A stretch of DNA of 64,000 nt from a virus (IMGVR_UViG_2724679058_000003), one strand, 5' to 3'. Positions 60,759 through 64,000 are shown, numbered from the stretch's first letter. The notes: generated by a model from the sequence alone, not told the origin. Program-made: numbers and translations.

Positions 60759-61022
60759 TTACCTATTCAACCGACTTTTGGAACCTTCAATAATAAGCCT
60801 GCTATTGGCGCTGAAAATAAGAACCATGCAGCTCTGAAGGCTTTCATTCATATCCTTATATTCCGCGAGATACATGCCAATAAAGCCAGCAAGTACGGCG
60901 GAAATACATTCGGCCAGCAATTTCTTGCATGAAGACTCGTAACGGTTTTCACATAGCCCACTCAAATACGAATACACCCCACCAAGAAGGGATAACATCA
61001 CGATATGTACATAAAATGTCAT
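60759..61022 (-). CDS. Second holin-like small membrane protein, AT-rich
   Basis: ORF 87 aa with two hydrophobic helices and charged tail. Confidence 0.4.
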   Translation of the reverse strand: MTFYVHIVMLSLLGGVYSYLSGLCENRYESSCKKLLAECISAVLAGFIGMYLAEYKDMNESLQSCMVLIFSANSRLIIEGSKSRLNR

Positions 61023-61149
61023 TTTTTACCTATACAACAGTAAGTTGAACAACATCTGAGAACGGTATGCACTTTGTGATTTCCACACACACTGGTTTTG
61101 TTAATTAAAACCTGTAGCTTGCAATAAATAACGATAGTGGGCAGAAAAT

Positions 61150-61445
61150 ATGCTAATAGGCTATGTACGCATATAGACAAATGAACAAAACACAGCTATG
61201 CAGTGAAAAGCACTTGAAAGCGCAGGATGTGAGCTAATTTTTGCGAATAAGGCGAGCAGCAAAAAGGCTGGGCACCCTGGGTTAAAAAAGGTTCTGCGTA
61301 TGCTTTCCAGAGGTGATACCCTAGTCTCGGGCTAGGGACAACATTTCGAGGACAGTTTTCATTAGCGGTCAGCAGGCGCTAGATACATCGAATTGATGTG
61401 CCGCGCGATAAATGTACCTATTCTATCAAGATAAATTACACCGAC
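61150..61445 (+). pseudogene. Decayed serine-invertase N-terminal fragment, convergent with cin
   Basis: Translation MLIGYVRI*TNEQNTAMQ*KALESAGCELIF...GLKKVLRMLSRGDTLV... parallels invertase catalytic domain but has multiple in-frame stops. Confidence 0.55.
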
Positions 61446-61457
61446 GCGGCATTAGAA

Positions 61458-62030
61458 TTACAGCTCAGATTGAGTTTGGCGCTTCTCTACAGGATGGTAA
61501 CGATAAATCGTCGATACACCGATATCGTAAATAATTGCCAACTGTTTCCTGCTGTAGCCATTTTCGATCAACCTCGCTATTTGCTCATGTTGTTCTTTTG
61601 TCAACTTCGGGCGACGTCCGCCAATGCGTCCCTGTTCGCGTGCAGCTGCCAGTCCGGCCAGTGTTCTCTCAACAATTAATTCACGTTCCATTTCTGCTAA
61701 AGCCCCCATGACGTGAAAAAAGAAACGCCCCATGGGTGTTGATGTGTCAATACTGTCTGTCAGACTACGGAAATTAACACCTTTTTCCCGCAACTCCTCT
61801 ATAAGCGTGATAAGGTGTTTCATACTTCTGCCAAGCCTATCCAGCTTCCAGACAACCAGCGTATCTCCTTCTGATAACGTTCTGAGCAGCTTTTTCAAGC
61901 CTGGTCTGGCTGACTTTGTTCCGCTTATTTTATCTTCAAAAATCAGTTCACATCCTGCGCAGTTCAGTGCATTTCTTTGTAAATCTGTGTTTTGGTCATT
62001 TGTTGACACACGAATGTAGCCAATTTGCAT
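61458..62030 (-). CDS. cin: Cin DNA invertase (serine recombinase)
   Basis: ORF 61458..62039; IGYIRVSTNDQ, VVWKLDRLGRS, C-terminal HTH; start set at MQIGYIRV. Confidence 0.85.
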   Translation of the reverse strand: MQIGYIRVSTNDQNTDLQRNALNCAGCELIFEDKISGTKSARPGLKKLLRTLSEGDTLVVWKLDRLGRSMKHLITLIEELREKGVNFRSLTDSIDTSTPMGRFFFHVMGALAEMERELIVERTLAGLAAAREQGRIGGRRPKLTKEQHEQIARLIENGYSRKQLAIIYDIGVSTIYRYHPVEKRQTQSEL

Positions 62031-62083
62031 GAAAAACAACCTCTTTGTTTAGTTAAAAATACATCGTTGGTATAGGTAGGGAT

Positions 62084-62109
62084 TAAGACTAAAACGTTGG
62101 TTTGGGGGA
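62084..62109. other. cix-like crossover site at cin-proximal border of the invertible segment
   Basis: Start of ~200-bp inverted repeat TTGGTTTGGGGGAAGGCTCTGCA shared with 63668-63693. Confidence 0.5.
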
Positions 62110-62560
62110 AGGCTCTGCACTGCCTGTTGGTGTGCCCGTTCCGTGGCCCTTAGAAACACCACCAACGGGCTGGCTAAAATGTAACGGAGCAGCATTTTCT
62201 TCTGAAAAGTACCCAAATCTGGCAAAGGTTTACCCAACGTTAAAATTACCTGATTTACGCGGTGAGTTTATCCGTGGTTGGGATGATGGGCGAGGTGTGG
62301 ATGCGGGAAGGGTCATCTTAAGCATACAGGGGTGGTTAACAGGAAGTCATTATCATAATATTCGGTCATGGGACGCGTGGGATAACACGGTATTGGTGCC
62401 AAATGACAGAGGGGGGGATAGTCTGTTGTCGACAGATAACGCCGTCCAAGAAGGAGCGATTAATGGTAAATTTACCAGTCAATACAGAACGGAGTTATCT
62501 GGGGGGAATGAAACCCGCCCACGTAACATTGCCTTCAATTATATTGTGAGAGCAGCATAA
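62102..62560 (+). CDS. Tail-fibre variable C-terminal segment (Sv-prime), silent in current orientation
   Basis: ORF 152 aa; GEGSALPVGVPVPWP ... DLRGEFIRGWDDGRG shared with Sv. Confidence 0.7.
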   Translation: MGEGSALPVGVPVPWPLETPPTGWLKCNGAAFSSEKYPNLAKVYPTLKLPDLRGEFIRGWDDGRGVDAGRVILSIQGWLTGSHYHNIRSWDAWDNTVLVPNDRGGDSLLSTDNAVQEGAINGKFTSQYRTELSGGNETRPRNIAFNYIVRAA

Positions 62561-63171
62561 TGGATAATGCGATATTAAATAGCGAACTTATAGCCATACA
62601 GGCAGGAAACATTATCGTTTATAACTATGATGGTGGTAATCGGGAATATATTTCTGCATCAACTGAATATCTTGCTGTTGGCGTTGGTATTCCGGCACAT
62701 TCTTGTTTGGATGCTCCAGGCTCACATAAAGCAGGTTATGCGATTCTCCGTTCAGAGGATTTAAGTTCATGGGAGTATGTGCCAGATCATCGTGGCGAAA
62801 CTGTCTATAGCATTGACACTGGGAATCCCGAAGAAATCACGGTGTTGGGTGACTATCCGGAAAATACAACCACTATCGCCCCGCTAACACCATACGACAA
62901 ATGGGATGGAGAGAAATGGGTGGTTGATACTGAGGCTCAACATAGTGCAGCTGTAGAGGCAGCAGAAACAAAACGTCAGTCATTGATTGATACTGCGATG
63001 GATTCCATTAGTCTGATTCAGTTGAAATTACGGGCTGGACGGAAGTTGACGCAGGCAGAAACCACGCAGCTTAACTCCGTGCTAGATTATATAGACGAGC
63101 TGAACGCGATGGATTTAACCACGGCACCAGATCTCAACTGGCCTGAAAAACAACTTTCTACAGCCAGTTGA
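62560..63171 (+). CDS. Tail fibre assembly chaperone (U-prime)
   Basis: ORF 203 aa, ATGA-coupled to Sv-prime. Confidence 0.65.
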   Translation: MDNAILNSELIAIQAGNIIVYNYDGGNREYISASTEYLAVGVGIPAHSCLDAPGSHKAGYAILRSEDLSSWEYVPDHRGETVYSIDTGNPEEITVLGDYPENTTTIAPLTPYDKWDGEKWVVDTEAQHSAAVEAAETKRQSLIDTAMDSISLIQLKLRAGRKLTQAETTQLNSVLDYIDELNAMDLTTAPDLNWPEKQLSTAS

Positions 63172-63176
63172 TATAA

Positions 63177-64000
63177 TTAATCCGCCCTCACAATATAATT
63201 AAATGCAATATTACGAGGGCGGGTTTCTAAGCCAGCAGTACCTAAATTAGCTACGGACTGTTTATATGTTTTAAAAGTTCCATAATTAGGGGCTGGCAAT
63301 CCTGCATCGCTTGTGTTCCCCCATCTGATAACTCCCGTATTACCACTAGTAGCCCATGCCTCGTCAAAGTAGAAATTAATTGAGCTGTCAGTTGCTACGG
63401 TTGATTTTGACGGTAATCCGTGAGCATGATCCTCCGTTGCATATCCTTGCTCGCTTAAAATAGAGCGACCTGGATCAATCCCGCGCCCGTCATCCCAGCC
63501 ACGAATGAACTCACCACGTAAATCAGGCAATTTATTTGTCGGGTAAGCCTTTGCCAGTTCCGGGTATTCTTCAGCAGAAAAAGCCGCACCGTTGCATTTC
63601 AGCCAGCCTTTTGGCGGAGTGGCTGAAGGCCACGGAACAGGGACACCAACAGGTAATGCAGAGCCTTCTCCCAAACCAAGGTAATCAAGAACGCTCTGAA
63701 TACTGGTCTTACCAAGAATGGCGCGTCCAACACTTGTCAATGCAGTTAACGCGGCACGATCAACACCTGTGAAATAAGGGAGTTTATCTGCTGCTGTAGC
63801 TAGTGCCGCTAGAGCAGTGAGCGTAGCGTCTGCCGCTTGCTTTCCATTAGCCAAATCATATGCACCTTGACAGCTTTCGGTGTGGCGGCCAGCACTTCGG
63901 ACGTGCTATTGGTAGCACTGCTGAGTTGGACTATCCCTTTTTGAGCCGTGGTTGCATCCTGGGCTGTATACTTCCCGTTAGCCAGGTCATATGCAGCCTT
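63177..64000 (-). CDS. Tail fibre gene S (constant part entering from right edge, fused to Sv inside invertible segment); partial; frame break near 63855-63870
   Basis: ORF 63177..63854 plus upstream frame reading KAAYDLANGKYTAQDATTAQKG...; 5' end lies beyond the window. Confidence 0.65.
63668..63693. other. cix-like crossover site at S-proximal border
   Basis: Inverted copy of 62084-62109 region. Confidence 0.5.

Follow-up and report, generated by a model that had tools for sequence, protein, structure and literature searches.

A pseudogene fragment of cin beside a Min-type DNA invertase in a P1-like phage-plasmid, probably stranded when the end of a Mu-like phage replaced the ancestral invertase region

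Functional serine DNA invertases of the Din family (Cin, Gin, Hin, Pin and Min) are encoded by uninterrupted genes of ~185-195 codons, which specify a resolvase catalytic domain and a C-terminal helix-turn-helix (HTH) domain, and the N-terminal serine of the YxRVST motif is the catalytic serine of serine recombinases. The cin genes of P1 and P7 are members of this family with an internal Fis-dependent enhancer. In the stretch of viral DNA analysed here, 64,000 nucleotides of IMGVR_UViG_2724679058_000003 (the window), a first-pass annotation described a decayed invertase fragment at 61150-61445 lying tail-to-tail with an intact invertase gene. This raises the question of which invertase the fragment comes from, how it came to lie beside another, and whether it still does anything today.

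A DNA profile of three intact cin genes was searched with nhmmer, at maximum sensitivity and E ≤ 100, against both strands of 61000-61457. The single match lay on the plus strand at 61150-61326 and corresponded to cin nt 1-177, i.e., 59 codons, with an E-value of 4.5e-54; as 49 of the 59 residues are also identical to Cin of P1, the resemblance to a Cin-type recombinase noticed at first reading is far beyond chance. Translation of the plus strand from 61150, which had been quoted exactly, gives MLIGYVRI*TNEQNTAMQ*KALESAGCELIFANKASSKKAGHPGLKKVLRMLSRGDTLV. The several stops and frame changes described at first come down to two in-frame stop codons, TAG at codon 9 (61174-61176) and TGA at codon 19 (61204-61206), with no frameshift anywhere in 61150-61326. 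Codon 9 is TCA (Ser) in every intact invertase compared and is the position of the catalytic serine. With this serine codon lost, only codons 1-59 present and two stops among them, the relic fails as a functional Din-family invertase, lacking the uninterrupted reading frame and the two complete domains of such a protein, and no plus-strand ORF of at least 30 aa is found at the locus.

Homology had been proposed to run over ~95 residues, but it covers the 59 codons only, and nothing invertase-like follows 61326: nhmmer (E ≤ 100), Smith-Waterman comparison against shuffled sequences and tblastn all found no invertase similarity on either strand of 61327-61445. Candidate extensions of the relic were tried and rejected. 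MAFFT aligned 61416-61448 with cin nt 262-295, where nhmmer at maximum sensitivity was blank; Smith-Waterman scores of 61327-61457, and of the leading 67 bp alone, against the 3' portions of cin, gin and min in both orientations did not exceed the shuffle means; and six invertase proteins gave only short, chance-level matches in tblastn, which fell on the wrong strand or broke the expected order, the best having an E-value of 0.019 in a target of 131 nt. An inverted duplication at the breakpoint was also considered from a minus-strand 'PLMKTVLEMLS' match (E 0.019) and rejected, as a repeat search gave it no support.

The relic is nearer to cin (49/59 residues) than to the neighbouring invertase (37/59), and is therefore not a duplicate of its neighbour. 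Its surroundings are also those of cin, since it occupies the ancestral P1 position and orientation beside lydC and is preceded by the cin promoter region. In a Megablast search against phage records, window positions 60903-61326 matched P1 31416-31836 at 83%, an interval which in the P1 record comprises lydC, the cin promoter region and the 5' end of cin. The holin gene lydC (60759-61022, minus strand), an ORF that matching records annotate as LydC/holin, lies to the left of cin in the ancestral order and fixes the place of the relic among the P1 genes; within the interval for which the P1 record lists a p15B match, it is 85.1% identical to P1 lydC. Between lydC and the relic lies the homologue of the lydC-cin intergenic region with the cin promoter (61023-61149, plus strand), onto which the features of the P1 record were mapped by pairwise alignment. 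The relic derives from a cin gene of the P1/P7 kind, of which it keeps nt 1-177 with the start codon and the enhancer homologue, as well as the promoter region upstream, while the rest of the catalytic domain, the HTH domain and the adjacent cixL are missing from the relic. The stretch 61150-61326 is evidently a genuine pseudogene fragment of a P1-type cin.

The convergent neighbour (61458-62030, minus strand), taken at first for cin, turned out to be a Min-type serine DNA invertase instead. It is an intact ORF of 190 aa with homologues assigned to Pfam PF00239 and PF02796 (resolvase and HTH), and its identity is 74% to Cin of P1 and 72% to Gin of Mu, against 96% to the invertase of a Mu-like prophage. 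Its sequence is exactly that of the UniRef100 representative Q05517_ECOLX, named 'DNA-invertase'; the database names of this protein do not contain 'Min', and the label rests on the p15B coordinates in the P1 record, the accession Q05517 and a published plasmid comparison, in which the P1-like plasmid pJIE250-3 carries, in complement orientation, a Min-like invertase 98.5% identical to Min of p15B (PMC6906374). The tail-to-tail arrangement of the relic and this intact gene was confirmed; the relic does not end where the intact gene ends, as had been thought, but 131 bp before its stop codon.

These 131 bp are composed of two parts, a 67-bp filler (61327-61393) between the cin breakpoint and a Mu-like phage end, and the 64-bp Mu-like end itself (61394-61457), which starts TGATGTGCCGCGCGATAAATG and lies directly downstream of the invertase stop codon. 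When 61327-61457 was compared by BLAST with 5,426 complete E. coli genomes (28 Gb), the whole stretch was found on P1-like plasmids only, and its last 60-odd bases also matched chromosomes at 81-84% (E 3e-8 to 1e-6). In three of these chromosomes the match lies at a prophage edge, ~76 bp beyond the 3' end of a Min-like invertase gene, and the three prophages interrupt different host sites, namely wzz(fepE), a site next to yehR, and a 4Fe-4S protein gene next to torS. When the three were aligned with the window, homology started in all four at the same nucleotide, 5'-TGATG(C/T)GCCGCGCGATAAA, and the sequence before it was unrelated; the terminal sequences are at 2427-2504, 3501-3581 and 445-522 of the loci L004, L034 and L059, respectively. 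Inward from this point the window and the prophages are contiguous at ~87% from 61394 to 62301, a stretch that takes in the invertase, the crossover site and the initial 200 bp of a tail-fibre cassette, and 61394-61457 has a 14-bp deletion relative to the chromosomal copies.

The annotation of the prophage at L059 names a DDE-type integrase-catalytic-domain protein, an ExeA family (MuB-like) protein, Gam, Mor, a DUF935 protein and phage head morphogenesis genes, and this gene set, as far as annotation names go, marks it as Mu-like and transposable. GTCGT is repeated at both of its junctions and a GAGATAAAT(T/G)ACA motif lies near both ends, the terminus at the far end being ambiguous. In the donor-like prophages the invertase lies ~76 bp from the phage end with no com/mom genes between the two, a difference from Mu. 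From the shared boundary at unrelated host sites, 61394-61457 is identified as what appears to be the terminal 64 bp of a Mu-like transposable phage. As a separate observation, L059 corresponds to 1072444-1109560 of the E. coli MS20655 chromosome, where a complete-looking Mu-like prophage sits in the 4Fe-4S protein gene next to torS.

The filler is homologous to most of a 73-bp filler in plasmids of the pGA_Eco1 type. Elsewhere it was found on P1-like plasmids only, with no copy in any E. coli chromosome by BLAST of the 5,426 complete E. coli genomes and no second copy in the window, and a pattern scan of genome contigs returned 22 chance matches and one P1-like contig. No structured RNA was indicated, there being no Rfam match at E ≤ 1 and a spacer fold no better than those of shuffled sequences (z = -0.58).

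On its other side the invertase gene adjoins a module of invertible tail-fibre DNA. A mix-like crossover site (62083-62110, minus strand) lies next to the 5' end of the invertase, and exact matches to TTCYCCCAAACCAASG at 62095-62110 (minus) and 63666-63681 (plus) form inverted partners that bound a tail-fibre-tip cassette. The visible part of the invertible region (62102-63854) contains a tip cassette at 62102-62560 on the plus strand, accompanied by a tail-fibre assembly gene at 62560-63171, and a second cassette at 63177-63854 on the minus strand; both cassettes encode GEGSALPVGVPVPWP just inside the crossover sites. Two crossover-site-like sequences, 62053-62076 and 62083-62106, were also seen in tandem between the invertase start and the first cassette, 30 bp apart and 75% identical, and only the second fits the site consensus that is also found at 63666-63681.

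The layout is that of the G segment and gin in Mu, where the constant part of S reads into the cassettes and the invertase lies beyond them, reading away, near the phage end. As with gin in Mu, the 5' end of min faces the invertible DNA, whereas cin of P1 reads toward the C segment. The incoming module differs from Mu in having several short cassettes rather than a single G segment. In a sister plasmid 99.9% identical to the window (p50579417_1, L005) several short tail-fibre cassettes lie between the invertase and gene S, which is a multiple-inversion pattern. The order of the cassettes in the window differs from that in this plasmid, as is expected for different inversion states. Gene S of the same plasmid (L005 8048-9565) contains ~5 tandem repeats of ~300 bp, related to the a1/a0 repeats in gene S of P1, the last copy being the point at which homology to P1 sets in again.

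Plasmid p15B was compared with the window through the homologies to X62121 that are listed in the P1 GenBank record. There, P1 31570-31832, covering the cin promoter and the first 173 nt of cin, is matched to p15B 7147-7408 (89%, one gap); P1 31684-31754, the enhancer region, to p15B 6463-6533 (83%, no gaps), which maps to min in the window; P1 31346-31499, in lydC, to p15B 7483-7638 (84%, no gaps); and P1 37152-38867, comprising part of S, R and part of gene 16, to p15B 1-1712 (96%). The window matches the first three of these P1 intervals at 90.1% with one gap, 83.1% with no gaps and 85.1% with no gaps, and the spacings of the blocks, 614 nt to the min enhancer and 75 nt to lydC, are exactly those of p15B. 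The numbers of gaps are also the same, and each identity lies within ~1 percentage point of the recorded value. The p15B breakpoint is essentially that of the window, the listed match ending at cin nt 173 and the homology here at nt 177. The position beside lydC and the convergent min are likewise shared, and no difference was detected between the two at the level of the matches listed in the P1 record. The window thus carries the p15B arrangement, collinear with it to the nucleotide, and we infer that the two are alike in sequence and that the name psi-cin would apply to the relic of the window. The relic is presumably the psi-cin of p15B (E. coli 15T-; GenBank X62121), a truncated cin next to min which was reportedly described, and named so, by Sandmeier et al. 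in 1991 (Nucleic Acids Res 19:5831). The arrangement is thus already known from p15B and is ordinary among P1-like plasmids; what appears to be new, and modestly so, is that the start of the foreign module coincides exactly with the end of a Mu-like transposable phage.

The extent of that module can be read from the sister plasmid, in which homology to P1 breaks off after cin nt 177 and is regained 5.9 kb further on, at P1 37095 within the gene S repeats; the right flank is 96.8% identical to P1. Within the intervening 5.9 kb only the invertase resembles P1, at 70% and in reverse orientation. From these boundaries we infer the following order of events. The ancestor would have had lydC reading leftward, followed by cin reading rightward, cixL, the C segment and S, and a module of ~5.9 kb would have replaced everything from cin nt 178 through the middle of gene S. 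The donor would have been the invertase-proximal end of a Mu-like transposable phage, contributing its terminus, the Min-type invertase, the crossover sites and the tail-fibre-tip cassettes. The right junction would have formed in the tail-fibre gene S and the left one, an illegitimate junction, inside cin, where it would have brought along ~70 bp that are neither cin nor phage and that flanked the end of the donor phage. The incoming invertase would have made cin dispensable, and the orphaned 5' end would then have drifted, acquiring two nonsense codons, a damaged predicted promoter and damage to one Fis site of the enhancer, and would persist for want of any selection to remove it and by virtue of its place next to lydC.

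We regard it as very likely that 61150-61326 is such a non-functional relic of cin, stranded by replacement with a Mu-like module and drifting neutrally. The same had been suggested in outline by the first-pass annotation, which saw an older recombinase copy left behind when the present invertase and its segment were acquired, and the ancestral position, the break at cin nt 177 and the foreign module bear this out; its alternative, that the older copy had been inverted, found no support. With regard to the route of entry, the ~70-bp filler seems to fit the capture of a phage end together with its flank, from a resident prophage or from virion DNA, better than direct transposition into cin, and transposition followed by deletion could be an alternative to capture with flanking DNA. 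The coincidence of the module boundary with a Mu-like terminus suggests that transposable phages donated the p15B-type multiple-inversion tail-fibre system. The relic matters little in itself, but it is a fossil by which a known exchange of modules in P1-like phage-plasmids can be dated and oriented.

The first-pass annotation had proposed looking for the same remnant in other P1-like genomes, and it is present there. The whole arrangement of relic and invertase was found in 158 of the 486 plasmids with any match, most of the others matching the cin 5' region only, and the same stops and junction occur in more than 100 plasmids at ≥99% identity. The spacer was present in ~172 of the 5,426 complete E. 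coli genomes, almost always on plasmids of ~90-100 kb. Both stops and an identical junction were seen in all 24 other window-type copies that were aligned (22 IMG/VR contigs, a phage record and a RefSeq plasmid), which excludes sequencing error and indicates a single ancestral event. The succession of cin nt 177, the 67-bp filler and the Mu-like end therefore offers a precise marker for typing P1-like plasmids by their host-range module.

Two related forms of the locus were found, both with a 5' cin remnant in the same place by the holin genes and convergent with a different intact invertase, as in the window. In the pGA_Eco1 type, represented by plasmid pGA_Eco1 and one IMG/VR contig, the remnant is longer (cin nt 1-307) and heavily decayed, with a 2-nt and a 9-nt deletion, and is followed by the 73-bp filler, the same Mu-like end and an identical invertase; PGAP lists it as a frameshifted, incomplete recombinase pseudogene. 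The substitution G22A is common to this relic and that of the window, and the window type is most simply read as a deletion derivative of the longer pGA_Eco1 form. In Salmonella phage SJ46 (NC_031129.1, L007 1292-1516) the remnant extends from cin nt 1 to ~295 and its first 59 codons are free of stops; the record lists it as a 'DNA invertase' CDS of 74 aa, convergent with a different invertase annotated 'pin'; a different spacer follows it, and this invertase is only 55% identical to that of the window. The SJ46 remnant is probably a younger pseudogene that has been mis-annotated as a gene. Taken together, the SJ46 and window types indicate that the cin locus has been overwritten at least twice, with a 5' stub left each time.

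The relic differs from P1 cin at 19 of 177 positions, and the 15 differences unique to the relic are distributed 5:4:6 over codon positions 1, 2 and 3. Ten of the 59 residues are changed, including the two stops, against only two differences between Cin of P1 and Cin of P7 over the same stretch, and this substitution pattern has the appearance of neutral decay. Among 12 haplotypes the density of segregating sites was 0.023 in both the relic and the spacer, 0.031 in the intergenic region, 0.015 in lydC and 0.009 in min, a direction that hints at relaxed constraint on only four sites in the relic and five in min. Taken at face value, these patterns suggest a neutral relic that does nothing today.

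A broader reading would make the cin locus of P1-like plasmids a recurrent landing pad for host-range switching modules taken over whole from other phages, in which the stub is kept each time for a function in cis, either as a partly active Fis enhancer or in the control of lydC, and would not be neutral. At least two captures are visible, the Min type from the end of a Mu-like phage and the Pin type of SJ46, and we nevertheless hold this reading to be unlikely. The narrower proposal, that the relic is retained as a second enhancer in cis for Min inversions, acting through Fis at 61168-61239 some 0.9 kb from the nearest crossover site, is in our judgement unlikely, although it has the enhancer homologue itself in its favour. 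That homologue (61168-61239), located by alignment of the P1 feature, corresponds to the whole 72-bp P1 enhancer (cin nt 19-90), and the suggestion that enhancer-like sequence may survive here is correct to this extent, but one Fis site of the pair has been damaged. Two Fis-like 15-mers, with a spacing of 48 bp, are found at nt 23-37 and 71-85 of every intact invertase gene in the comparison. In the relic, the site II homologue (61220-61234, GCGCAGGATGTGAGC) is identical to that of cin, and the centres of the two sites are still 48 bp apart with no indel between them. The site I homologue (61172-61186) reads TATAGACAAATGAAC in the relic and TATCAACAAATGAAC in cin. Here C26A places a thymine at -4 of the bottom strand and removes the Y-R step, A27G is a further change, and in the alternative register (nt 22-36) G22A removes the guanine at -7. 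The binding rules for Fis are G/C at +/-7 and a Y-R step at +/-3-4, with no thymine at -4 of the bottom strand or at +4; Asn84 of Fis strongly discriminates against that bottom-strand thymine, and the -7 guanine is contacted by Arg85 (PMC4784862). Site I therefore carries Fis-disfavoured core changes in either register.

Seven further substitutions lie between sites I and II of the relic. On the side of retention, replacing the sequence between the sites of the Hin enhancer lowered its activity only 2.5- to 5-fold (PMC3798978). The enhancer part of the relic is, however, conserved no better than the rest, with ~10 of 72 positions differing from P1 against ~9 of 105. None of the four polymorphic sites in the relic among the 12 haplotypes falls inside the enhancer, where ~1.7 would be expected, and this is a point for retention. 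Against it, the pGA-type relic has a 2-bp deletion between its Fis sites, so the enhancer is not being maintained across the lineage. That deletion should misphase the two Fis dimers, an effect that Johnson, Glasgow and Simon are said to have established for the Hin enhancer in 1987 (cited in PMC3798978). Min also has an enhancer homologue of its own (61941-62012; 83.1% identical to the P1 enhancer with no gaps), in which both Fis-like sites, at 61994-62008 and 61946-61960, are intact. Judged by its sequence, the relic enhancer is probably inactive or weak, in keeping with a stranded and neutrally drifting relic.

Transcription offers another possible role, in which the relic promoter still fires and transcription through psi-cin into the 3' end of min tunes the invertase by antisense RNA or interference. 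The geometry would allow this, since the relic and min converge, the stop codon of min lying only 131 bp from the relic, and no intrinsic terminator was found on the plus strand between them. Moreover, the -35 hexamer of P1cin, TTTCCA, is conserved at 61080-61085. Both predicted -10 hexamers are damaged, however, TAAAAT of P1cin having become TAAAAC (61106-61111) behind a spacer shortened by 1 nt, and TATCAT of P2cin having become CAACAT. A consensus promoter scan found no sigma-70-like promoter in 61023-61149, with the reservation that P1cin and P2cin are themselves only predictions in the P1 record, and the intergenic region has the highest polymorphism density of the segments compared (0.031). 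The ribosome-binding site upstream of the relic has likewise changed, from GAG to GGG. We consider a regulatory role of this kind very improbable. That the stops are sequencing or assembly errors in what is really an intact cin or an unrelated gene, which a corrected sequence would restore, can be dismissed with near certainty, as the same stops and junction recur in the 22 IMG/VR contigs, the phage record and the RefSeq plasmid and in more than 100 plasmids at ≥99% identity, cin homology ends abruptly at nt 177 so that a 59-codon N-terminal stub would remain even without the stops, and no alternative ORF exists at the locus.

The annotation of these remnants is inconsistent, being absent in one RefSeq plasmid, a recombinase pseudogene in another and a 'DNA invertase' in SJ46, and a clear description should help. 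The intact partner is affected too: in vB_EcoM-813R1 (ON470617.2, L002 5559-6130) the Min-type invertase has been split into two overlapping CDSs, 'Hin2' and 'Hin1', which suggests a frameshift or a sequencing error in that record.
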